NCBI GenBank assembly: GCA_964534625.1
Contig: CAZHRF010000001.1
Location: 64,001-128,000, forward strand
Direction of reading: 5' to 3'
Origin: an uncultured archaeon
GTDB taxonomy: Archaea > Asgardarchaeota > Heimdallarchaeia > Heimdallarchaeales > Heimdallarchaeaceae
Length of the DNA: 64,000 nucleotides
The notes beneath the pieces are model-generated. The model did not search any database. It saw only the letters and a program-made list of their open reading frames with translations, and was not told where the DNA came from. Shown here in pieces: positions 2,535 through 25,676 of the stretch. Numbering within the stretch: the stretch's first letter is position 1; every line of letters starts with the position of its first letter. The position numbers and the translations under genes were made by a program.

Positions 2535-3650
2535 TTAATAACCATATTTATTTTCTTCGTTAATTTCTTCTTTAAACTCTTCTGCAATCTGTAACTTTCT
2601 ATATTCTTCAAACTTTTCTTTTGTCTTTAAAATGTTAATAATGAGAACATCCAAATCTTTAGCAAAATTTTTTATACCATCCATGTTTTTCGTAGAAAAA
2701 GTATATTTTATGTCATATTTTTCCTTAACATAATCAACATCTTTTATTGTCAGAATATCTGTCTTATTTAATGTTTTTATGGTGGGTACTTCAGGATATT
2801 CGTTTTGAATATCTTTCAAAAGGTTTAATTGCTCCTCCTTTGATAATGTTGTATCTTTACTAAAATCAAAAATAAATACTATAATGTCTGCTATATATCT
2901 TATAGTTGCAATGCTTTTTTTTTCTATCAAATTTTTCTCGGAAAATGGACGATCCAATAATCCTGGCGTGTCCACTATTTGGGCATTCCCAAATAGTAAT
3001 TTTCTATGTCCAAATATAACTTTCTTTGTAGTAAACGGATATTCTGCTATTTCCGGAGTGCCAGATGAAATTATATTGATAAGTGATGATTTACCCACAT
3101 TAGGTGCACCAGCTATTACAACAGTTGGAACGCTTATATCAAAATCCGGAACTTCTTTCAATTTTTTTATAATGTATATTAGATATTCAACATCTGATCC
3201 TATTTTTTTTAATAAAGATACAAATCTTCCACCAGCTTCTCTCCTTATTTTAGCCATGTTTTTTGGGTGTTTTGTCTCAAAAATCTGTTTAATAAGCTCT
3301 AGTTCTATTTTTTTAATTTGTTTTGAAATTCCATCGATCCTTCCAAGTATATTTTTTACTCTGTCAATATCTGCGATTAGATCACATAACTCCACGTAAA
3401 ACTTGTGTAGAGTATCAATAGACGGAAATTGTTTGACAATTATATCTAATTTTTGAGTCATTTCCTCTGCTAGTATTTCTATCCTTTGATGTTCAATAGT
3501 AGCAATTTTTTCTTCTCTTGACATTCCCTTTCTGATAGATTTTGGTTTGTGTTTGTTCACTTTTGCAAAAGCATAATCTATTATGAGTGGGATTGGCGTA
3601 ATAAATTGAACATTTTTGAAGGGATTCCTTCTATATATCTCTCGATCCAC
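2535..3650 (-). CDS. NOG1-family GTP-binding protein
   Basis: NPF N-terminus, helical domain with FPSID..FY, GAPNVGKSS, YPFTT, DTPGLLDRP, NKTD. Confidence 0.92.
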   Translation of the reverse strand: MDREIYRRNPFKNVQFITPIPLIIDYAFAKVNKHKPKSIRKGMSREEKIATIEHQRIEILAEEMTQKLDIIVKQFPSIDTLHKFYVELCDLIADIDRVKNILGRIDGISKQIKKIELELIKQIFETKHPKNMAKIRREAGGRFVSLLKKIGSDVEYLIYIIKKLKEVPDFDISVPTVVIAGAPNVGKSSLINIISSGTPEIAEYPFTTKKVIFGHRKLLFGNAQIVDTPGLLDRPFSEKNLIEKKSIATIRYIADIIVFIFDFSKDTTLSKEEQLNLLKDIQNEYPEVPTIKTLNKTDILTIKDVDYVKEKYDIKYTFSTKNMDGIKNFAKDLDVLIINILKTKEKFEEYRKLQIAEEFKEEINEENKYGY

Positions 3651-3660
3651 TTAAATCACA

Positions 3661-4770
3661 TTATATTTCAATTAAAGATTTATCAATCTCATGTTCAAAG
3701 TAGCTTTCAATATCTTCTATAACTTCTTTTCTTTTGGTCATATATTTATCTTGATATTCTAAAATCATATTGATTAGTTTTGGCTTACAATCTAATCCAC
3801 ATATGACATCACCATTTTTACATTTTTTCTTGATATCATTGAGTTTTTGATCATCTGTGACAAACAAATATTTGAACCAATCATATACAGTACAAATCTC
3901 AGGAACACCGCCTAATTCTCTCTGTTCTTTTATTGTTGTTCTTCCCCCCGTAAAGGCTGACATTACCTTCTCTCTTATCTGTTCCTTGGTATCCCTAAGG
4001 TAAATGCAAGTTTCAGGTATCGAAGACGACATTGGACCACCTGTTAATCCCTTTAGATATGTTGTGTAAAGAGATGCAGGGGCGTTTATCTTTCTTTTTC
4101 CTGCAATATCTCTCGTAAGCCGTATGTATACATCTTGATCTAATCCTATTGGTACTACTACTGGAAGATTAAAGTCAACAGTTGGTTGTAAAATGTGTGC
4201 TGCTTGAATACAAGAATAGAATATAGCACCTGGATTTTCATCCCCCTCAAAACCAAAAGCGGATTTAATTGTATTATACGTGAGATTTGTTGAAAACTTA
4301 AGAGCTAATTCATAAATTTTATGATCCTTACTCGAAATATATCCGTGAGTTTTCTCTGGATCGAACCCAATTGAAAAAATATCTATTGCATTTTCAATTG
4401 CAACTTTATAAGTACTTCCTAGATCATTAACTTTATTGAAGACATATTTTTCATCATCAGAAAATGGGATAAAATAATGGCAGTCATATTTTTTTTGTAA
4501 ATATTTAATTAGTTTAAATACAACTAGATGTCCAAAGTGTAAATCGTTAGATGGCCCTCTTCCACTTACTATGGCCCAACTTTTACCTTCTTCGGTTATA
4601 TCTAGTATTTTATTGAAATCCCTGTGGGCAAACACAATGTTTCTTCTAAACATGTAATAGTCTTTCCCAATTCGCTGTGTAATATCAGAAATATTAGAAA
4701 TACCAAATTCTTTTAGAATTGCTTCATAATCTGTTCTTTTTTCAATATCACGGACCTTATTTTCTGTCAT
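3661..4770 (-). CDS. trpS: Tryptophanyl-tRNA synthetase (archaeal/eukaryotic type)
   Basis: SGRGPSNDLHFGH, DDEKY, PIGLDQD, AFTGGR...EQRELGG, C-x-G-x-x-x-CG-x-x-CK; KMSKS loop reads PMSSS. Confidence 0.92.
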   Translation of the reverse strand: MTENKVRDIEKRTDYEAILKEFGISNISDITQRIGKDYYMFRRNIVFAHRDFNKILDITEEGKSWAIVSGRGPSNDLHFGHLVVFKLIKYLQKKYDCHYFIPFSDDEKYVFNKVNDLGSTYKVAIENAIDIFSIGFDPEKTHGYISSKDHKIYELALKFSTNLTYNTIKSAFGFEGDENPGAIFYSCIQAAHILQPTVDFNLPVVVPIGLDQDVYIRLTRDIAGKRKINAPASLYTTYLKGLTGGPMSSSIPETCIYLRDTKEQIREKVMSAFTGGRTTIKEQRELGGVPEICTVYDWFKYLFVTDDQKLNDIKKKCKNGDVICGLDCKPKLINMILEYQDKYMTKRKEVIEDIESYFEHEIDKSLIEI

Positions 4771-4972
4771 TTTGTCTTCATTTAAAGTATATGTGTTATA
4801 TATATTATATTTTTGTTAAGAAATACATATTTTGAGTATTCATCTCTTTTAATGTTAATTATCTTGAACTAAACTAGTATATATATGTCAAATGATAGAT
4901 GAATTTAATTTTGCCTTTTTTCCATACCGACTTGTACAAATAATTTATAAAATTTGTATGAATGTTCTATCA

Positions 4973-6424
4973 ATGAAAGATTGGACGTTAATATATGATA
5001 AAATAGCAAAGCATGCCATTGACGTCATTTCTAATTTTGATGATATTATACTTGGATTTAATGTTAATGTTGATAAAGTGATATATATTAGCCCAGCTGT
5101 ATTAGATGAACTATTATTGGAATTAGAAATCGAAAAGAAGGGATTAATGGACTCCTTTGATAAAGTTCCTGCTAAAATTTCAACCCCTATGGATTTAATA
5201 TTTTGTTTGATAAATTCAATTAGTAAAGGAATAGCTGATGAAAAATTAATAGTTTCTGATGATCTCAATGAATGGATCGAGAACCATTTTATAATCGAAG
5301 AAAAAAAAATAGGTGGTCAAGCGGGAATTATGGCAAATATGCTTTCTGATATCGGATTAAAAAATATTTTAATTAGCGTTCCAGCTTTTCAAAGAGAACT
5401 TAAACCTTTATTGAACCCCAATATAAAAGTAGGAGTGAGAAAAAATGGTTCCTGTGCAATGAGACCAATAAATGAGATGAATTTTGAAGATCAAGGGAAT
5501 CTTAGTCATTATATATTCGAGTTCAAACAAGGCAAATATCTTTTTGATTATATCGATTGTAAGCGTGATAATCGTTTTATTGCTTCTTCAGATCATTTGA
5601 ATACTACACTTAAGATTAATTCAGGATTTAAATATTGTAGCAAACAAAATATATCCGTTTTTAAACTAGCCATTATTTCTGGCTTTCATTTAATCAACAG
5701 TGAGAACAATAAGTATAGTAATTATAAAAGTCTGTTCTCCAATGTAGAGCAATTGTTAGCTGTATGGAAAAGAAAACATGCCTGCCTTCTTATTCACCTA
5801 GAATTAGCGGCTTTTTCTGATGATTTACTAAAGTCTTTTGTGATCAATAGGATTTTTCCGAGAATTGATTCTTTAGGATTAAATGAACAAGAATTGCTAT
5901 CATTGTTGATACATTTCGATCGCGAATTGTACCAAGAACTTCGCAATGAAATGAACGCGATTAATTTATTCAAGGGATTACATAAGTTATGGAAATCGTT
6001 TCCTAAAATAAGGTTCCATTTACATTATTTAGACTTTTATTTGGTCCTCTCCAAATCCATTACAAAAGATTTATTGATATATAGGCGAAATTCGTTAGTA
6101 TTTGCGGCACTTATGGGGTACCAAAAAGCAAAAACGGGTTCTATTAAATCATTAGATGATTTGAGGTGTTATCCCTCTAAAGTGTCTTCAAAAGGTTGGA
6201 AACACCTAACATCTTTGAATGAATATCTTTTGTCCTATTATAATGGAACTTGTTCTTTAATTGATGACGGTTTTTTCTATACTAAAGAATTTGCATTAAA
6301 TGCTATACCTACTGTTATGGTTAAAAAACCAAAATCTTTAGTAGGCTTAGGTGATACCATCTCTCTTTCTTCAATATTAGCAGAACAAGCATTTAAGTAT
6401 CAACCTAAACTCAAAAAAAATTAG
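4973..6424 (+). CDS. ADP-dependent glucokinase/phosphofructokinase
   Basis: GFNVNVD, GGQAGIMAN, NRFIAS, IHLELA, SLGLNEQEL, VGLGDTIS. ORF track starts at 4892; TATA-like TTTATAAA at ~4944 favours ATG 4973. Confidence 0.9.
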   Translation: MKDWTLIYDKIAKHAIDVISNFDDIILGFNVNVDKVIYISPAVLDELLLELEIEKKGLMDSFDKVPAKISTPMDLIFCLINSISKGIADEKLIVSDDLNEWIENHFIIEEKKIGGQAGIMANMLSDIGLKNILISVPAFQRELKPLLNPNIKVGVRKNGSCAMRPINEMNFEDQGNLSHYIFEFKQGKYLFDYIDCKRDNRFIASSDHLNTTLKINSGFKYCSKQNISVFKLAIISGFHLINSENNKYSNYKSLFSNVEQLLAVWKRKHACLLIHLELAAFSDDLLKSFVINRIFPRIDSLGLNEQELLSLLIHFDRELYQELRNEMNAINLFKGLHKLWKSFPKIRFHLHYLDFYLVLSKSITKDLLIYRRNSLVFAALMGYQKAKTGSIKSLDDLRCYPSKVSSKGWKHLTSLNEYLLSYYNGTCSLIDDGFFYTKEFALNAIPTVMVKKPKSLVGLGDTISLSSILAEQAFKYQPKLKKN

Positions 6425-6499
6425 GTGTTTAAATACCGTTATATCCTAAATATCTTAAGGGAAATAGACATAATCAAATGAAAAAAAGAATATTTTCTA

Positions 6500-7882
6500 A
6501 TGGATGTTGTTCAAGTGGATAATAAAGAAAATACTGATGTAAATAAGGTTGTATGGAACCAATTAGGCGACAAAATTGGGATGTTCGTATTTAAATTAAA
6601 AAAAAAGAACTTATGCAACTGTAGAAACATATTAGAGAGACTATCATCTAAACATATCCCTTTTTCTCTGCATTTTTGTGATAATGAAATACATTTGGTA
6701 ATCTATATAGAAGATTTAGAAAAAAGAAATGGTAATTCAGAACAAATCAATAAAAAGATTATTGAAGAATTTACCGAATCATCCTTTGCTGCACAAGTAT
6801 ATGCGCATGATTTTTTTAAACTAAAACATAACAAAATATCTATAAGGGAAAATCTTATTGAATTAAAGACAAATAAGCAGAAATCAATGCTTTTTTTTGG
6901 TTACATACTCCAAAAAACTAATGAAAAAGTACAAAATATTACCCAGAAATATAAACAATTTTATGAATTGGTCAACAACACAGGAAAATTTAGTTTTGTA
7001 CTTTCCCAGAGTTCAGAAAAAAACAAAAATAATACTAACTCATGGTCTTTTTTTTTCTATTCAACTAGTTATAACTATAAAGAATTGAACAATTTAAAAG
7101 ATTTGTTACACAAGGTGTTTAGTTTAGCTTCTGTTAACTTAGAATGGGAATTAAGACAGTTAACTTGTAGTGAGATAGAGTCACATTATGCTAGTTTTTG
7201 TTATTATAGGCCTTGGATAAAACATAAAGGAAATATCCTTGAAATAATTGATAGTATATTACCAGTTAAAAAATTAAGTCGTAAAAATGAATTATTAGTT
7301 GATAAGACGCACATAAGTCATCAAATAAAACAACCTTTATCTATTGATATTAAATCACCTTTACCTTCTGTTAAAACTTTATTTCCAGAACAATTTGAAA
7401 AAAATAGAAAAGAAGGAGCTCATGATTCTGTAGTCTTAGATCATGTTCCAGATGTTTTGACCACAAGAAATGAGCTTAAAGCTGAAAAACCCGATTCAAA
7501 TTCCCAAATATCAATGAATCCAAGATTGTTCATAAAAAAATTTTTTATCAAACTAAATTTCAAAGAAACTTCTATTTTTGAAGATAATTTTGATTTTGTA
7601 TTAAGGAAAAATTCTTTTTACATTTTAGTAAAATCTTTTGAGCTAGGACTGACATTAGATGATGCCCATAAACTCGTATCAAGACTTGAATTCATAAAAC
7701 GGTTCCAAAACAAGTTTCTATGTATAGTTGTAACTGATAAAATAGAGAATGAAATTCATGAGTTCTTTAAAGAATATAATATACTTTTAATTGAGAATAA
7801 TCTATGCTTATCCAAAGAATATTTTGAAGACAAATTGTATGATAAATTATTATACTCTAATCTTCCCGCACCTATAATGTAA
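6500..7882 (+). CDS. Hypothetical protein with a C-terminal restriction-endonuclease-like (Mrr-cat-like) fold, probably inactive
   Basis: 460-aa ORF; C-terminal FDFVLRKNSFYILVKS...LCIVVTDKI...NILLIE pattern resembles PD-(D/E)xK/Mrr domains. Confidence 0.5.
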   Translation: MDVVQVDNKENTDVNKVVWNQLGDKIGMFVFKLKKKNLCNCRNILERLSSKHIPFSLHFCDNEIHLVIYIEDLEKRNGNSEQINKKIIEEFTESSFAAQVYAHDFFKLKHNKISIRENLIELKTNKQKSMLFFGYILQKTNEKVQNITQKYKQFYELVNNTGKFSFVLSQSSEKNKNNTNSWSFFFYSTSYNYKELNNLKDLLHKVFSLASVNLEWELRQLTCSEIESHYASFCYYRPWIKHKGNILEIIDSILPVKKLSRKNELLVDKTHISHQIKQPLSIDIKSPLPSVKTLFPEQFEKNRKEGAHDSVVLDHVPDVLTTRNELKAEKPDSNSQISMNPRLFIKKFFIKLNFKETSIFEDNFDFVLRKNSFYILVKSFELGLTLDDAHKLVSRLEFIKRFQNKFLCIVVTDKIENEIHEFFKEYNILLIENNLCLSKEYFEDKLYDKLLYSNLPAPIM

Positions 7883-19508: not shown

Positions 19509-20435
19509 TCATATTTTTTTCGTCTTCTCTCTTATTGAAATTATAACAATGGAAAAGAAGACTAAAATTCCTCCAGTAATTGTCCAAATCGTTGGGATTT
19601 CAGTAAATAAAATGGCTTCTAAAACGAAAGCGACCAAAACTTCAATAAGCATTAAAATACTACTTGGTCCTGCTTCAATTTGTTTAAGCCCATACGTATA
19701 TAATCCAAATGCAACAACAGTACAGATGATAGATAAATAGCATACAGCTAATACAGACTCAAAAGTGATTTGTAAGGATATTTCCCTAATTGAATATTGA
19801 AAAAATACAAAGGGTAAACATGATAATAGAAAAAGAGTAGTCCATAAAAGTGTAACAGAGAAAATGTCAAAACTTGAATGCTTTGGATTTTTATTCAAAA
19901 AATTCTTTGAAATAATGATATATGCTGTCCAAGCTAAACTTGAAAGAAGAATGATTAAATCTCCCATTATAGTACCCTTACTTAATTGAGAGAAGTTAAG
20001 ATTAGTAGAAATAAAAAAAACCCCTGAAACACCTATTACTCCACTAATTAAAACGGACCAATGATACTTCTCTTTAAGTACTAAAGGTGAAAAAATTGGA
20101 ACTATGATGACATAAAAATTTACAAACAGTGATGCTTTACCAGCTGTTGTGTTTTGTTGTCCAATAAACTGAGATAGAAAAGCTAATGCATTTATTAATC
20201 CTATAATTATTACATCCTTCTTCAGAAGTAGTTTTTTTATTTTTTGTATTCTAGATAAAAAGAACGGTGTTAAGATGATAACCGCAAGAGAAAATCGAAA
20301 AAAAACAAAAAGGACGGGAGTAATATATTCTAATCCCCATCTTACTGCAATAAAGCTTGTGCCCCAAAGAATTGCAGCTAAAACTATCAAAAGTAGTGGA
20401 TACATATTTGAAATCTGATCATGATTAACCGACAT
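19509..20435 (-). CDS. EamA/DMT-family transporter
   Basis: ILWGTSF, FFRF, TTAGKASL, LKEK, GDLIILLS; two repeats, about 10 TM helices. Confidence 0.9.
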   Translation of the reverse strand: MSVNHDQISNMYPLLLIVLAAILWGTSFIAVRWGLEYITPVLFVFFRFSLAVIILTPFFLSRIQKIKKLLLKKDVIIIGLINALAFLSQFIGQQNTTAGKASLFVNFYVIIVPIFSPLVLKEKYHWSVLISGVIGVSGVFFISTNLNFSQLSKGTIMGDLIILLSSLAWTAYIIISKNFLNKNPKHSSFDIFSVTLLWTTLFLLSCLPFVFFQYSIREISLQITFESVLAVCYLSIICTVVAFGLYTYGLKQIEAGPSSILMLIEVLVAFVLEAILFTEIPTIWTITGGILVFFSIVIISIREKTKKI

Positions 20436-20491
20436 AAGGGTATTTTTCTCCCTATGAGTTTATATACTAATCTCTAACTATATTAATTAGT

Positions 20492-21439
20492 ATGTCTAGA
20501 AACTTGTTACCATTATTACTATTAAAACATATGGGGATTATCAAAGGGAACACACAATTCCAGAAATTAATGTTTTTATTAAATTTTGAGTACAATGTAG
20601 ATACAAGATATGTCTTTGAGCCTTGGAAATATGGTCCTTATTGTGAAATCTTATCTCAAGATGTAGACACATTAACAGAATATGGTTACATTTATCATGA
20701 GAAAAAAGAACTAACAGAAGGAGAAAAAATTAATCGGTATCAGTTGACTGAATATGGCGAACAATGTCTTCTTGAACATGAAATCAATCAATCTGTTGAA
20801 TCAATAATTGAAGATTTATGTCAAAATTTCGGAAATTTAGCATTAAGAGCATTAATTGAATATATATATGAAAAATATCCAGACTATACAATAAAGTCAG
20901 AAATAAAAGACGAATATTGTCATCCCAATCCAAAGCTTTCTGGCTTTAAACCCGCGAATGAGTTGATAATGAAGCCAACAATCAGTCCTTCATTTGTTGA
21001 TTGGTTGGAGGATGAGTTAAAAGAAACCAAGGAGAGATTGAATGTTGTAGACGCTCCTGTTTTTCAAAATGAAGCAGAGACCCCAGTAGATGAAATCATA
21101 TTATCGATGCTTGATATCGCATATGAAGATCTAAATGAACAAGCACAAAATATTACTACTGAAATAGCCATACATGACTATGAAGAATCTGGTAATATAA
21201 ATAATCAAATCTATTTTATCTTGGAAATGATTCATGAGATGCTAAATGCATTAACAGAAAATGATATTATTGGAGTATTCACGGAATTTGCTAATATTCA
21301 AACAAATATGCAAATGCTGCATGAAAGACTAGAGTTGCACGCTTTATCGTTAAAATCTGCATTAATAAGAAAGGTACAAGAGTTCATGGGTGAGGTAAAT
21401 TACTTACTTGAGAGTATAGACAAACTAATTATGTTATGA
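20492..21439 (+). CDS. YwgA/SocA-Panacea-like winged-helix protein fused to an acidic helical C-terminal domain
   Basis: GNTQFQKLMFL, FEPWKYGPY, YQLTEYG, LIEYIYEKYPDYTIKSEI; second half D/E-rich and helical. Confidence 0.65.
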   Translation: MSRNLLPLLLLKHMGIIKGNTQFQKLMFLLNFEYNVDTRYVFEPWKYGPYCEILSQDVDTLTEYGYIYHEKKELTEGEKINRYQLTEYGEQCLLEHEINQSVESIIEDLCQNFGNLALRALIEYIYEKYPDYTIKSEIKDEYCHPNPKLSGFKPANELIMKPTISPSFVDWLEDELKETKERLNVVDAPVFQNEAETPVDEIILSMLDIAYEDLNEQAQNITTEIAIHDYEESGNINNQIYFILEMIHEMLNALTENDIIGVFTEFANIQTNMQMLHERLELHALSLKSALIRKVQEFMGEVNYLLESIDKLIML

Positions 21440-21449
21440 TGTTTAAAAA

Positions 21450-21516
21450 CACTCCCCCAAAAGGTTAGGGGGGTGAAAATGTCCCCCTTCTCATAGAGAG
21501 GTTGATTGGTTTTTTT
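21450..21516 (+). promoter_or_regulatory. GC-rich alternative hairpins followed by a T-run upstream of the LAGLIDADG gene
   Basis: CACTCCCC(21450-57) pairs with GGGGGGTG(21468-75); the G-run can alternatively pair with TGTCCCCC; then CCTTCTCATAGAGAGG and TTTTTTT. Confidence 0.5.
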
Positions 21517-21533
21517 GCAAGAGAAGCTGTACT

Positions 21534-22610
21534 TTGAAGATGTGGATCATGAAAATGGAAATGAGTGAGGAACAAAAAAGATTGGTCAAGCTGTATATGG
21601 GTAATTTGATGGGTCTCAAACAAATAGGTTTTCAAACAAATCAAGATCCTAGGACATTTAAGAAGAAAATAACTTCACTAGGTATAGAAATACCTTATCC
21701 TGGTTCTATCTGGACAAAAATGAAAAAACATATTGAAGGAGCCTATCTTAATTCCATACCTTATTGGTTAATAGAAGTTATTTCTGGAATCATGTTAGGT
21801 GATGGAAGTATGAGATTACAGAGTAAAACTTTTTTTCACCCAAATCATCCAACATTAGAGCATTATAAAGTAACAATAAACTTGTTAAATGAAATACAAG
21901 AAAAGGTAAAAGAGGGTTTAAGCTTAACGAAAACTGATGTAAGGGAATGGAATAAAGGCATTCAGACTATTAGATATATAAATACAGCAAACTTAAGGAT
22001 GCACAAATCAATCTTGGAACTAGAATGGGTAAAAGTATTAGCTAAAATATTCAATGAATACTTTCAGATTCAGCCTTTTGTAAAAAAAAATTTAACTAAA
22101 TCAACAAAATGGTCATGTGGGTTTGATACTTCATCTAGTGTACAACTATTTAAAATCTGGAAACAATGGTATAGAGTTGAAGGAGACAAACAGTCTAAAA
22201 TCCTACCAAATATCGTTAAAATAACGCCAAATGTGCTTCTACATTGGTATGTTGGAGATGGATATTATTGTAATACAGATATATCCTTATGTTCCCACAA
22301 TTTTACATGGAAAGAACAAGATATGTTAGTTTGTTTATTGAAAGAACAAAATATAAAAGCTACAATAAGAGAAAAAAGCGGTGTTTATTATGTCGGAATA
22401 TCTACAAAAGAGAGTAATAAAGAAATTTTCTTTGAGTACATAAGGCGAGCAAAATTTTACAAACAAGCAAAAAAACTGTTCCCACATAAATTTAGTGCAA
22501 AGATAACGAAAAGAAAGATAGTAAAAAAAATGAAAATTGAACATCCAGAATATTTTAAGAATAGTCCTGAAATAAGAAAAAAAATATTGATAAAACTTTC
22601 AGAAATGTAA
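21534..22610 (+). CDS. Free-standing two-motif LAGLIDADG endonuclease (I-SceI/LAGLIDADG_2-like) with N-terminal HTH
   Basis: Motifs ISGIMLGDGSM and LLHWYVGDGYY, SHNFTWKEQDML; N-terminal KLY..MGLKQIG...RTFKKKI..LGI HTH. True start is probably one of the ATGs at 21540-21561. Confidence 0.78.
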   Translation: MKMWIMKMEMSEEQKRLVKLYMGNLMGLKQIGFQTNQDPRTFKKKITSLGIEIPYPGSIWTKMKKHIEGAYLNSIPYWLIEVISGIMLGDGSMRLQSKTFFHPNHPTLEHYKVTINLLNEIQEKVKEGLSLTKTDVREWNKGIQTIRYINTANLRMHKSILELEWVKVLAKIFNEYFQIQPFVKKNLTKSTKWSCGFDTSSSVQLFKIWKQWYRVEGDKQSKILPNIVKITPNVLLHWYVGDGYYCNTDISLCSHNFTWKEQDMLVCLLKEQNIKATIREKSGVYYVGISTKESNKEIFFEYIRRAKFYKQAKKLFPHKFSAKITKRKIVKKMKIEHPEYFKNSPEIRKKILIKLSEM

Positions 22611-22631
22611 AAAATTAAGAAAGAGAAAAAA

Positions 22632-25343
22632 TCAGTTTTTCTCATATTTTAAAGTAGCGTGTGCAGCAGCTATTCGAGCACTAGGAACTCTGAAAGGAGA
22701 ACAACTGACATAATCCAAGCCAATTTTGTAACAAAATTCAATTGAACGAGGATCACCGCCTTGTTCACCGCATATACCTATTTCTAATTTTTCATTTGTT
22801 TTTCTTCCATCTTTTACGCACATTTCCATTAATTTTCCGACACCTTTTTCTTCTATTGATACAAATGGATCTCTTTCAATTAATCCCATTTCCATATACT
22901 TTGAAATAATTTTTCCCGCATCATCTCTGCTGAACCCTAGTGTCATTTGATGTAAATCGTTTGTTCCAAACGAATAGAAATCTGCTCCTTTTTCTCCTCC
23001 CGCTATTTCTGCACTTGTTAGCGTCGCTCTTGGTACTTCAATCATTGTTCCTATGAGATATTTGAATGTTACTCCTTCTTCTTCAAAAACCTCTTTAGCC
23101 ACGTCTTCTATATATTTTCTTTGGTTTTTAAACTCTGATTCAAACCCTATTAAAGGGATCATAACCTCGGGATATACGTCCTTCCCTAGTTTTTTCACTT
23201 TAGCAGCAGCTTTAAAGATAGCTCTTGCTTGCATTTTCGTAACTTCGGGCATTGTAATCCCCAATCTACATCCCCTAAGGCCAAGCATTGGATTCTGTTC
23301 ATGCATATCTCGAACTATTTCTAGTAGTTCATATTTTTCTTTTAATTCTTCTCTTGATACTCCTTCTAGACGTTTCTCATATATCTCAATAAGTAACTCT
23401 TCTTGTTTTGGTAGAAACTCATGCAGTGGAGGATCAATTAATCTTATGATCACTGGTTTTCCTTCAGCAACATTGAATAATCCTTCAAAGTCTTTCTGTT
23501 GAATTGGTTCTAATTGATCAATGTGTTTTTGTCTTTCTTCTTCTGTTTTAGCAAGAATCATTGATCTCACTATATCAAGTGCTTCAAAAAACATATGTTC
23601 TGTTCTACAGAGACCAATACCCTCTGCACCGAAATCTAATGCTTTTTGGAATTGATCTGCTTTATCCGCATTTGCTTTTACACCAATTTTTGCGATATCA
23701 TCTGCCCAATCCAAAATTTTTGACATACTTTCAGGTAATTCAGCCGGGGTTGTTGGTAGCTCACCTTTATAAATGGTACCATCTGTTCCGTCGATAGTAA
23801 CCCATTCTCCTTCTTTGATCAATAAACCATTACCTTTTAATTGGCATGTTTCAATATCAATCTTTATTCCCCCTCTCTCACTTCCGACAATACATGCTTT
23901 ACCGATCTGTCTTGCCACAATCGCTGCATGAGATGTTAAACCACCTTTTAATGTCAAAATACCTTTAGACGCGGCCATACCATGAAAATCTTCGGGAGTT
24001 GTTTCAACGCGAACTAAAATTGTTTCTTCACCTTTTTTAGCTGCTTCTTCAGCTCTATCTGCATCAAAGTACGCCTTACCAGAAGCAACTGCAGCTCCTG
24101 CTGCTAAACCAGTTCCAAGTAGTTTTTTTTCTAAATCTTTCTTTATTTCTTCACTTGATTTATAGGGATCAATTTCTTTCCAATTCAAACTTGGAAACAA
24201 AGAATTATCAACATCCGATGGTAAAATGCGTTGTACAGCTTCTTTTTTAGTGATTAGTTCCTCTTGCACCATGTCATAAGATATATTACCCGCTGCAATA
24301 CCTGTCCTTTTACCAGAACGGGTTTGAAGCATATAAAGTGTTCCTTCTTCAATAGTGAATTCCATATCTTGCATGTCTCTATAATACTTTTCAAGATCCT
24401 TTGCAATAGTAATTAGTTGCTCATAAACCTTTGGCATGTCCTCTTTAAGATTCTCTATCTCTTCTGGCGTTCTAATTCCTGCAACAACATCTTCACCCTG
24501 TGCATTGATTAAATATTCACCATAAACTTTCTTTTCACCTGTTGATGGATTGCGGGTAAAAGCCACACCTGTTGCTGATGAATCGCCTTTATTCCCAAAA
24601 ACCATGGTTTGAATATTAACCGCTGTTCCTAAATCGTGGGGAATATCTTGATAATTCCGATAATCTATAGCTCTTTTATTATTCCAGCTATTAAAAACTG
24701 CTCTAATAGCCTTATCTAGTTGATCACGTGGATTCTGTGGGAAGTCTTCTCCCAGATGTTCTTTGTAAATGGATTTATTTATTTGTACAAGTTTTTTAAG
24801 CTCTTCTGCAGGGATCTTAGCGTCAGATTCGACACCAATTTCCTCTTTTACTTTTTCAAGTTTCTTCTCGAAATGAGCTTTTGATAGTCCCATAACAACA
24901 TCAGCAAACATGTAAATGAACCGTCGATAACTATCGTAAGCAAATCTAGTATTATTTGTAGATTTGGCTAATCCTTCAACGGAAACATCATTTAAACCTA
25001 AATTTAGCACAGTATCCATCATACCTGGCATACTAATTGCTGCACCAGAGCGGACAGAGACAAGTAATGGGTCTTCGTTATCGCCTAATGTTTTTCCAAT
25101 TTGTTTTTCTAAGGCTTCTAATGCATCATCTATCTGTTCTTTTAATCCTTCTGGATACTCATTGTTGTTGTCTAAAAAGTGCAAACAAGCTTTGGTTGAA
25201 ATCACAAATCCAGGAGGTACGGGTAATCCTATAGAGGTCATTTGAGCAAGATTAGCTCCTTTTCCTCCAAGTAGGGATTTCATACTAGCGTCTGCTTCGC
25301 AAATATTTTTTTTAAAGAATTTATATACGTATTTTTCACTCAT
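22632..25343 (-). CDS. ppdK: Pyruvate, phosphate dikinase
   Basis: LLGGKGANLA, LLVSVRSGA, GGLTSHAAIVAR (phospho-His), GLCRTEHMF, SFGTNDL, GICGEQGG, YVSCSPFRVP. Confidence 0.97.
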   Translation of the reverse strand: MSEKYVYKFFKKNICEADASMKSLLGGKGANLAQMTSIGLPVPPGFVISTKACLHFLDNNNEYPEGLKEQIDDALEALEKQIGKTLGDNEDPLLVSVRSGAAISMPGMMDTVLNLGLNDVSVEGLAKSTNNTRFAYDSYRRFIYMFADVVMGLSKAHFEKKLEKVKEEIGVESDAKIPAEELKKLVQINKSIYKEHLGEDFPQNPRDQLDKAIRAVFNSWNNKRAIDYRNYQDIPHDLGTAVNIQTMVFGNKGDSSATGVAFTRNPSTGEKKVYGEYLINAQGEDVVAGIRTPEEIENLKEDMPKVYEQLITIAKDLEKYYRDMQDMEFTIEEGTLYMLQTRSGKRTGIAAGNISYDMVQEELITKKEAVQRILPSDVDNSLFPSLNWKEIDPYKSSEEIKKDLEKKLLGTGLAAGAAVASGKAYFDADRAEEAAKKGEETILVRVETTPEDFHGMAASKGILTLKGGLTSHAAIVARQIGKACIVGSERGGIKIDIETCQLKGNGLLIKEGEWVTIDGTDGTIYKGELPTTPAELPESMSKILDWADDIAKIGVKANADKADQFQKALDFGAEGIGLCRTEHMFFEALDIVRSMILAKTEEERQKHIDQLEPIQQKDFEGLFNVAEGKPVIIRLIDPPLHEFLPKQEELLIEIYEKRLEGVSREELKEKYELLEIVRDMHEQNPMLGLRGCRLGITMPEVTKMQARAIFKAAAKVKKLGKDVYPEVMIPLIGFESEFKNQRKYIEDVAKEVFEEEGVTFKYLIGTMIEVPRATLTSAEIAGGEKGADFYSFGTNDLHQMTLGFSRDDAGKIISKYMEMGLIERDPFVSIEEKGVGKLMEMCVKDGRKTNEKLEIGICGEQGGDPRSIEFCYKIGLDYVSCSPFRVPSARIAAAHATLKYEKN

Positions 25344-25676
25344 AATAATAGGCACCTGTTTGGTTTCCTTATTAAATAATAGTCAAATCAATCTCGGAGT
25401 ATTTGTTTTTTAATATTATGATTCATTTCATTTTTATTTACAAATATTACATTACGTATGTTAAAACTGTATTGGCTTTTATTAATTGAAAGTATTATCA
25501 TTTAACCATATTTCTTTCGTAAAAATATTTCTTTATGCGGTATAATAACTCTCGAGTTTATAGGAATGCGTAACCAAAGTTTTAGATATAACTTCTTATA
25601 TCTATTAAAAACATCTCTTCCAATTATCTCTATATTAAGACAATATTTAACAAACTAGTAAATTTTAGTATATTTA

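Follow-up and report, generated by a model that had tools for sequence, protein, structure and literature searches.

The putative endonuclease gene and its proposed target

The window examined here is a 64,000-nucleotide stretch from an uncultured archaeon of the family Heimdallarchaeaceae (assembly GCA_964534625.1, contig CAZHRF010000001.1, positions 64,001 to 128,000), part of a 3.37-Mb metagenome-assembled genome that is 89.8% complete and consists of 120 contigs (G000 below). The gene of interest runs from 21534 to 22610 on the forward strand and faces, across a short spacer, the 3' end of an intact gene for pyruvate, phosphate dikinase (ppdK, 22632-25355, reverse strand). We treat it as a putative homing endonuclease gene (HEG), and use that abbreviation both for the window gene and for its ppdK-linked homologues in relatives. 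Homing endonuclease genes have been thought to require an intron or an intein in order to sit in essential coding sequence without killing the host, and free-standing ones have been documented mainly in phages and organelles. For the gene described here, we consider it quite probable that it is the engine of a free-standing mobile cassette of about 1.2-1.3 kb, which would repair its target by means of a substitute ppdK 3' end.

The open reading frame (ORF) and the two intact acidic motifs reported in the original prediction were both confirmed. The longest ORF codes for 358 residues from a TTG start (ORF list and translation); the likely start is the ATG at 21555, giving a product of 351 residues, because an identical database protein has that length. 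The protein matches the Pfam family LAGLIDADG_2 (PF03161) with 66.8 bits against a cut-off of 25, over residues 150-295 only, the match beginning so late because a helical insert parts motif 1 from the remainder. Motif 1 has the core LGDG with catalytic Asp90 (21795-21806, residues 88-91, forward strand), and motif 2 has the core VGDG with catalytic Asp242 (22251-22262, residues 240-243, forward strand). Among 16 aligned family members, which are about 45% identical, the catalytic Asp is kept in 15 at motif 1 and in all 16 at motif 2, where the Asp-Gly pair is invariant. When a profile of this 16-member family was compared with the PDB, I-SceI was matched at E = 2e-7, with both motifs aligned to its catalytic motifs. 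An AlphaFold2 model of the protein (mean pLDDT 92.4, pTM 0.87) likewise has I-SceI and I-WcaI as its best Foldseek matches (target-normalised TM-scores 0.68-0.72), and contains the pseudo-symmetric alpha-beta-beta-alpha-beta-beta-alpha double domain.

The N-terminal helix-turn-helix (HTH) and the helical insert after motif 1, both proposed from the letters of the sequence, appear in the model as well. Residues 12-47 (21567-21674, forward strand) form a predicted three-helix, HTH-type DNA-binding module (helices 12-23, 28-35 and 39-47), which is the most conserved block in the alignment of 16. Pfam searches with the N-terminal 89 residues alone and with the C-terminal tail alone returned nothing at E <= 1. 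The whole protein aligns in hhalign, at 99.9% probability, with a distant relative linked to the gene ahcY (see below); the N-terminus of that relative carries HTH_23/HTH_28 repeats in Pfam, and residues 12-47 align with its residues ~196-234, just past its best-scoring HTH_23 match at 156-182. The insert consists of two helices in the first LAGLIDADG half-domain (21855-21971, residues 108-146, forward strand; AlphaFold2 secondary structure), comes after the first strand of motif 1 and is also kept in the ahcY-type relatives. The C-terminal tail is helical and basic in the model. As part of the reading of the element as a whole, which we hold to be probable, the product would be a monomeric I-SceI-like LAGLIDADG endonuclease with an extra N-terminal HTH.

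The gene had been described as lying outside any intein or intron, and this description holds. The HEG is an ORF of its own, with stops on both sides and antisense to ppdK, and an Intein_splicing search gave no match, so that no intein context was found. A scan of 20400-25500 against Rfam (E <= 0.1) also gave no match, and therefore no recognised intron lies in that interval; moreover, the HEG is located past the ppdK stop on the opposite strand, which places it outside any ppdK intron position. The ppdK gene itself is full-length, matching TIGR01828 with 1261 bits against a cut-off of 843 and containing all three Pfam domains. Its stop and that of the HEG are separated by 21 nt (22611-22631), the distance originally given. 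This spacer is T-rich on the ppdK strand, and it probably serves as a shared terminator region; a pyrimidine-rich equivalent follows ppdK in all relatives.

Empty sites, a recent insertion and displaced gene ends

The occurrence of the HEG was followed through 40 related genomes, among them 24 from the family of G000 and 12 from a second one, through 400 genomes of the Asgard phylum and through metagenome contigs. Full-length homologues, 42-48% identical, are present in 4 of the 24 same-family genomes and in 1 of the 12 from the second family; homologues of the protein bear the names Candidatus Heimdallarchaeota and Heimdallarchaeum. A HEG of the ppdK type occurs in 7 of the 400 Asgard genomes. 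In the close relatives with ppdK that were searched, about 80% yielded no such gene. Where a full copy has enough flanking sequence, it is in every case convergent on the ppdK 3' end (G020, G011, two closed Heimdallarchaeum genomes, G039, bin51, and contigs L055, L056 and L057). One further contig, L058, stops within the HEG, and its junction on the side of the Panacea-like gene (see below) is the same as that of L055. On the ppdK tree the carriers are scattered, such that at least 3-4 changes are required.

What does the locus look like without the HEG? The original prediction had suggested a search for empty-site alleles in related genomes, and about 15 were found, all in HEG-less genomes of the same family. 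In these, a homologue of the Panacea/SocA-like gene that precedes the HEG in the window (20492-21439, forward strand; weak PF13274 match) faces ppdK directly across a pyrimidine-rich spacer of ~30-50 bp. In G000 a gap of 1,192 bp, occupied by the HEG, separates these two genes. Since the Panacea gene faces ppdK directly where the HEG is missing, it is the ancestral flank, outside the element, and not a partner of the nuclease. The locus is polymorphic for presence and absence of the HEG at one fixed site, with intact empty alleles, which is the pattern that characterizes a homing endonuclease gene.

The most informative pair of alleles comes from G020, a carrier nested among the non-carriers G010, G006 and G003 in the ppdK tree. 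Over more than 10 kb, G020 and G010 share 95-97% identity, except for a 2,085-bp insertion in G020 that contains a weakly HEPN-like ORF and the HEG. At the far junction of this insertion, the native Panacea-ppdK spacer is preserved together with a 23-nt stump of the native ppdK coding ...TLKN-stop, while the working ppdK of G020 has a different end, ...TLRNK-stop. Counted back from the stop, the mismatches per 100 nt of ppdK between G020 and G010 are 25, 13, 2, 2, 0, 1, 0, 0..., whereas the same count for two HEG-less alleles (G010 and G003) is 1, 2, 1, 2, 1, 0.... The last 120 nt are 82% identical and the preceding 600 nt 98% identical between G020 and G010, and compared with G010, G003 and G006 together, the final ~190 nt of ppdK are replaced in G020 while the kilobase upstream is ~99% identical. 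The G010 tail agrees with other HEG-less alleles (95-99% identity), and therefore G020 is the recombinant. On the Panacea side, only background divergence is seen, right up to the junction. As judged from these alignments, the pattern in G020 is that expected from homing with co-conversion of a flank. The HEG is single-copy in G000 and syntenic, features that the original prediction had listed, along with vertical inheritance and a lack of nuclease activity, as speaking against it; inheritance by the vertical route only is contradicted by the G020/G010 pair.

A second insertion, of 1,670 bp, is found in bin51 relative to G016 and G014, and holds a CHAT-domain fragment and the HEG. Here the ppdK tail is 80-82% identical, against 89% over the upstream 600 nt, a weaker signal of co-conversion than in G020. 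Further mosaic blocks were seen between two HEG-less alleles, G010 and G022 (L022, L019): for example, at a distance of 100-300 nt from the ppdK stop they show 18 and 17 mismatches per 100 nt, and at ~900-1000 nt they show 24. These blocks may be scars of earlier invasions or may reflect general recombination.

Displaced native gene ends indicate where the cassette enters ppdK. In contig L056 the order is Panacea gene, an intact 42-codon ppdK stump, HEG and ppdK, and the stump begins with the catalytic Cys codon (TGC) of the motif GICGEQGGDP and continues to the native stop and native spacer, with ~73% nucleotide identity to the working ppdK tail. G039, which belongs to a different family with a longer ppdK tail, has a 41-codon stump of its own family's tail type that starts at GEQGGDP. 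The stump boundaries in two lineages fall at the Cys codon (L056) or one codon past it (G039), and the replaced tract in G020 starts a few codons upstream of the same codon; because these positions coincide, the cassette is predicted to sit at the Ile|Cys codon junction, ~46 codons before the ppdK stop. In the window, this putative homing site is the Ile861/Cys862 junction (22770-22775, reverse strand), with insertion at 22772/22773. The last 46 ppdK codons of the window, Cys862 to Asn907 (22635-22772, reverse strand), would then be an element-borne replacement 3' end; in G000 this status is assigned by homology to the stumps and the G020 tract, because no close HEG-less relative is at hand. 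No ppdK stump was found in G000, L055, bin51, the Heimdallarchaeum genomes or G011, and a search of 21440-21533 in G000 gave only an 8-nt match at chance level (E about 0.9). The original prediction stated that no host gene is interrupted; on the surface this is correct, given that ppdK is intact, but the relatives show entry ~46 codons before its stop, masked by the replacement end.

A possible basis for self-recognition lies at the same position. The sequence TGTGGT at the Cys-Gly codons is present in none of 9 carriers and in 16 of 24 non-carriers (Fisher p = 0.0009, with alleles that are phylogenetically non-independent), so these codon positions are a candidate determinant of self-protection, and no more than a candidate.

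The arrangement recurs at other enzyme genes. Distant relatives of the HEG protein, 27-31% identical and 540-550 residues long, have a series of HTH repeats at the N-terminus and show homology along their full length (hhalign, 99.9%). Their genes likewise stand free and converge on a conserved enzyme gene at its 3' end. At an aldehyde dehydrogenase gene (locus L052, = G070; 5097-6641, reverse strand), the relative is a multi-HTH protein of 550 residues (3437-5089, forward strand), and upstream of its gene lies a 39-codon stump (3196-3312, reverse strand) that is 87% identical to the working tail and whose boundary falls in the conserved GxGRE motif. The architecture is the same as at ppdK. Just beyond this stump is a second aldehyde dehydrogenase gene, 29% identical.

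At ahcY, the pattern of patchy occurrence, empty sites and a replaced tail is likewise the same as at ppdK. In the genus of G057 (22 genomes, L129-L149), the usual arrangement, seen in about a dozen genomes, is truA facing ahcY, and the endonuclease gene lies between them intact in 3 of the 22 genomes and truncated in a fourth. Between the carrier G057 and the non-carrier G063, ahcY mismatches per 60 nt counted from the stop are 16, 23, 17, 16, 8, 4, 3, 2, 1, 1..., which corresponds to a diverged tail of ~270 nt in G057; the tail of G063 resembles those of other non-carriers. The truncated copy, in G059 (L140), keeps only residues 30-316 and looks like a decaying gene, as expected in the life cycle of homing endonuclease genes. 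An exhaustive profile search returned 54 clusters (at 50% identity) with E <= 1e-30 and 460 with E <= 1e-10, and many of these have longer N-termini.

Proposed mechanism and alternatives

The original prediction of a free-standing mobile endonuclease that acts on the neighbouring conserved gene is supported by the empty sites, the patchy distribution at a fixed site, the replaced tail and the native stumps. Four parts would make up the proposed cassette: a replacement copy of the final ~45 ppdK codons, the short T-rich spacer, the antisense HEG and its own promoter region. The enzyme would cut cassette-free ppdK at or near the catalytic Cys codons of GICGEQGGDP, and the break would be repaired by recombination with a cassette-bearing allele. 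In the course of this repair the cassette would be copied in, with ppdK kept whole by the substitute tail and the native tail displaced beyond the cassette, where it would remain as a stump that is not translated. Perhaps the stump then acts as the downstream homology arm next to the break in the next round, to be eroded or deleted later, as in the window. Carriers would probably be protected through synonymous changes at the Cys-Gly codons, and adjoining cargo could hitch-hike with the cassette. The element is genuine and intact, and probably active or recently active; we infer cleavage itself, the exact cut site, the mechanism of immunity and the continued activity of the G000 copy from the patterns described above.

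These loci provide natural before-and-after alleles, in uncultured Asgard archaea, for the entry of a free-standing LAGLIDADG gene into catalytic-site codons with the damage neutralised by a substitute end. If cleavage does occur, it would give archaeal chromosomes a further mechanism by which particular genes are targeted for mobility and local gene conversion, would explain mosaic 3' ends in conserved genes that serve as phylogenetic markers, and would provide new HTH-extended meganucleases with long targets that can be inferred. A broader proposal, put forward tentatively and on balance doubtful, is that the Asgard family as a whole (the 54 clusters at E <= 1e-30) consists of tail-swap homing cassettes, a third general route into essential-type genes besides introns and inteins. 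It includes the displaced tail as downstream homology arm, branches tuned to ppdK, ahcY, aldehyde dehydrogenase and probably more genes, and the capacity to carry cargo. It might also bear on the origin of organellar LAGLIDADG elements, since the nearest characterised relatives are mitochondrial enzymes of the I-SceI type and fungal mitochondria share the trick.

How does the cassette relate to known systems? I-SceI and I-WcaI, the best sequence and structure matches of the HEG protein, are endonucleases of mitochondrial rRNA group I introns that share with it PF03161, the two acidic LAGLIDADG motifs and the pseudo-dimeric single-chain fold. In contrast to these, the HEG is intron-free, resides on an archaeal chromosome antisense to its target and addresses a protein-coding gene, and its product adds the N-terminal HTH, the two-helix insert and the basic C-terminal tail. 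In its setting it resembles the Seg and Mob enzymes of the phage T4 type, which carry out intronless homing: these are free-standing between conserved genes, cut a nearby conserved gene with co-conversion of the flanks, and, like free-standing homing endonucleases in general, distinguish self from non-self through differences in the sequence of that gene (PMC13565253, a 2026 review according to which the documented free-standing homing endonuclease genes come mainly from phages). The T4-type enzymes differ in being GIY-YIG or HNH proteins of phage genomes, with no displaced target stump and no substitute gene end.

Insertions that do bring an alternative C-terminal coding end have been described for atp6 of Allomyces macrogynus, atp6 and cox2 of Phlebia radiata, and rps3 of Ophiostoma (PMC4019555). 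In these fungal mitochondrial cases, as proposed here, the host gene continues in frame into the alternative end and the native end comes to lie downstream, but they are organellar and the ORFs concerned are intron-derived or fused in frame (LAGLIDADG_1 and GIY-YIG in the Phlebia examples). The HEG, in contrast, is on an archaeal chromosome, convergent with its target and with its own promoter, and the strategy is repeated at aldehyde dehydrogenase and the replaced-tail pattern at ahcY. In circular Heimdallarchaeum genomes, Wu et al. 2022 reported an endonuclease-like gene in the element HeimM2, between a 16S rRNA gene and a tRNA gene (PMC8813620); that gene differs from the HEG, and ppdK and LAGLIDADG go unmentioned. 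We found no description of the ppdK-linked family or of the tail-swap mechanism in the literature on Asgard LAGLIDADGs or on archaeal intronless homing, and in that literature we met no account, for archaea, of entry into protein genes without an intron or intein by way of a spare gene end.

Several observations weigh against a homing cassette. The HEG has the same GC content as its neighbours, and a foreign origin by composition was rejected on that ground. By pairwise identities and the ppdK tree, the divergence of the HEG roughly follows that of the host ppdK, and the two Heimdallarchaeum copies look vertically inherited as judged from their sequences, so that much of the pattern is accounted for by prolonged vertical inheritance accompanied by losses. 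A recent transfer between the two closed Heimdallarchaeum genomes was considered and rejected, there being no block of excess identity around the HEG; dS is 0.069 for the HEG and 0.141 for ppdK in this pair, a figure with only 14 synonymous changes behind it on the HEG side. Because ppdK has recombination blocks unrelated to any insertion (G010 versus G022), ordinary homologous recombination without a nuclease could have brought the cassette into G020. For G000 itself, which has no close HEG-less relative and no stump, mobility is derived from homologues that are 42-54% identical. Finally, the codon association ignores phylogeny, and four HEG-less alleles have TGCGGT, the same as G000. Since its divergence follows that of the host and the Heimdallarchaeum copies look vertical, the HEG appears to spread among related populations, to persist for long periods and to be lost.

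The same observations on host divergence, the Heimdallarchaeum pair and the ppdK mosaics would also fit a relic passenger, in which the endonuclease has ceased to be the driver or never was one, gained by homologous recombination after DNA uptake at a variable, recombination-prone spot between ppdK and the Panacea gene and lost by deletion, as would the differing cargo (a weakly HEPN-like ORF, a CHAT fragment) and the truncation of one ahcY-type copy. This account is unlikely. It leaves unexplained why the catalytic Asp residues and the HTH are kept across copies that are only ~45% identical, and why the two Heimdallarchaeum species, with 18 non-synonymous and 14 synonymous changes between them, give a ratio of non-synonymous to synonymous rates (dN/dS) of 0.31 for the HEG. 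With ppdK at 0.037, this value and the invariant catalytic residues point to a maintained protein under looser constraint than a housekeeping enzyme. Breakpoints that fall on one catalytic-motif codon in two families, and again in a conserved motif in aldehyde dehydrogenase, are unexpected for a passive hot spot, and at every locus the partner that stays constant is the 3' end of one conserved gene.

The original prediction had also allowed for a domesticated regulator, and it is not difficult to see why: a protein with HTH and LAGLIDADG parts, constantly positioned beside ppdK, might regulate that gene or act at its terminator, and WhiA, which combines a LAGLIDADG fold with an HTH, is a weak structural match at rank 9 of the fold matches. 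WhiA is a bacterial transcription factor that is without the catalytic acidic residues and has its HTH at the C-terminus, and to our knowledge it is universally conserved in its clade. The HEG protein, in contrast, keeps both Asp residues and has an N-terminal HTH, and its gene is optional, not having been found in most of the close relatives searched. It also moves with flanking DNA, as the foreign ppdK tail of the recent G020 insertion illustrates, and it has paralogous branches on the unrelated genes ahcY and aldehyde dehydrogenase. We regard domestication as very improbable, and that part of the prediction was not upheld. Least probable of the accounts considered is a larger integrative or defence island moved by an integrase or transposase, with the duplicated ppdK end as an att-like repeat. 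Integrase-type elements in the 3' ends of tRNA or protein genes classically show a duplicated target 3' end beside the insertion; they regenerate that end from the element (attP) and are flanked by a partial copy. Some neighbours of the HEG are also defence-like (the Panacea gene, the weak HEPN match, the CHAT fragment). Nevertheless, the inserted segments contain no integrase or transposase, and the smallest of them carry the HEG alone (see below). The repeats are diverged homologous copies (~73% nucleotide identity) and not identical att cores, and the replaced tract in G020 forms a gene-conversion gradient at the junction.

Flanking sequences and cargo

On the side away from ppdK, the flank of the HEG varies: G000, L055 and L058 have the Panacea-like gene there, Heimdallarchaeum an NAD synthase gene, G020 a 246-residue ORF with weak HEPN-like matches, bin51 a CHAT-domain fragment and G011 a long membrane-like open frame. 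Minimal insertions, in G000, L055/L058 and L056, hold the HEG alone. In two others, additional sequence lies between the native flank and the HEG, namely the 246-residue ORF of G020 (L043:11336-12076, reverse strand; E about 0.01) and, in bin51, a C-terminal CHAT-domain fragment of 137 residues (L047:3501-3914, forward strand), an indication that genes of the defence type travel along with the cassette. The G011 copy (L007:349-2898, reverse strand; G011:C167) has a HEG frame that is open upstream into a membrane-like sequence of ~500 residues, for a total of at least 849 residues, with a 970-residue product on record (P0018). This long frame may have arisen by chance read-through, may be a genuine fusion or may reflect an internal start that went unrecognised.

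Apart from the HEG, the only PF03161 match in G000 is an intein in ribonucleotide reductase (G000:C17:33474-36938, L003), a standard LAGLIDADG_3 intein with Intein_splicing and LAGLIDADG_3 matches.

The Panacea/SocA-like gene has an acidic helical tail, and its convergent position next to ppdK is conserved in the ~15 related genomes. No toxin gene was seen beside it in the stretches examined, and the idea that it is an antitoxin or a partner of the nuclease was rejected on the evidence of the HEG-less genomes, where it adjoins ppdK.

The region 5' of the HEG (21440-21533, forward strand) had been described as a structured leader. As a conserved feature, a structured leader or attenuator was rejected: the fold of 21440-21560 (121 nt) is no more stable than that of shuffled sequence (z = +0.67), and the regions upstream of other HEG copies are unrelated in sequence to it. 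TATA-like boxes are found in the leader upstream of the HEG in L056, and the G000 region has a TATA-like TTTAAAAA at 21442-21449. Just past the stop codon of the Panacea gene, the AT-rich segment 21450-21516 contains a G/C-run hairpin (CACUCCCC...GGGGGGUG) and a run of seven T residues, and may be the terminator region of that gene.

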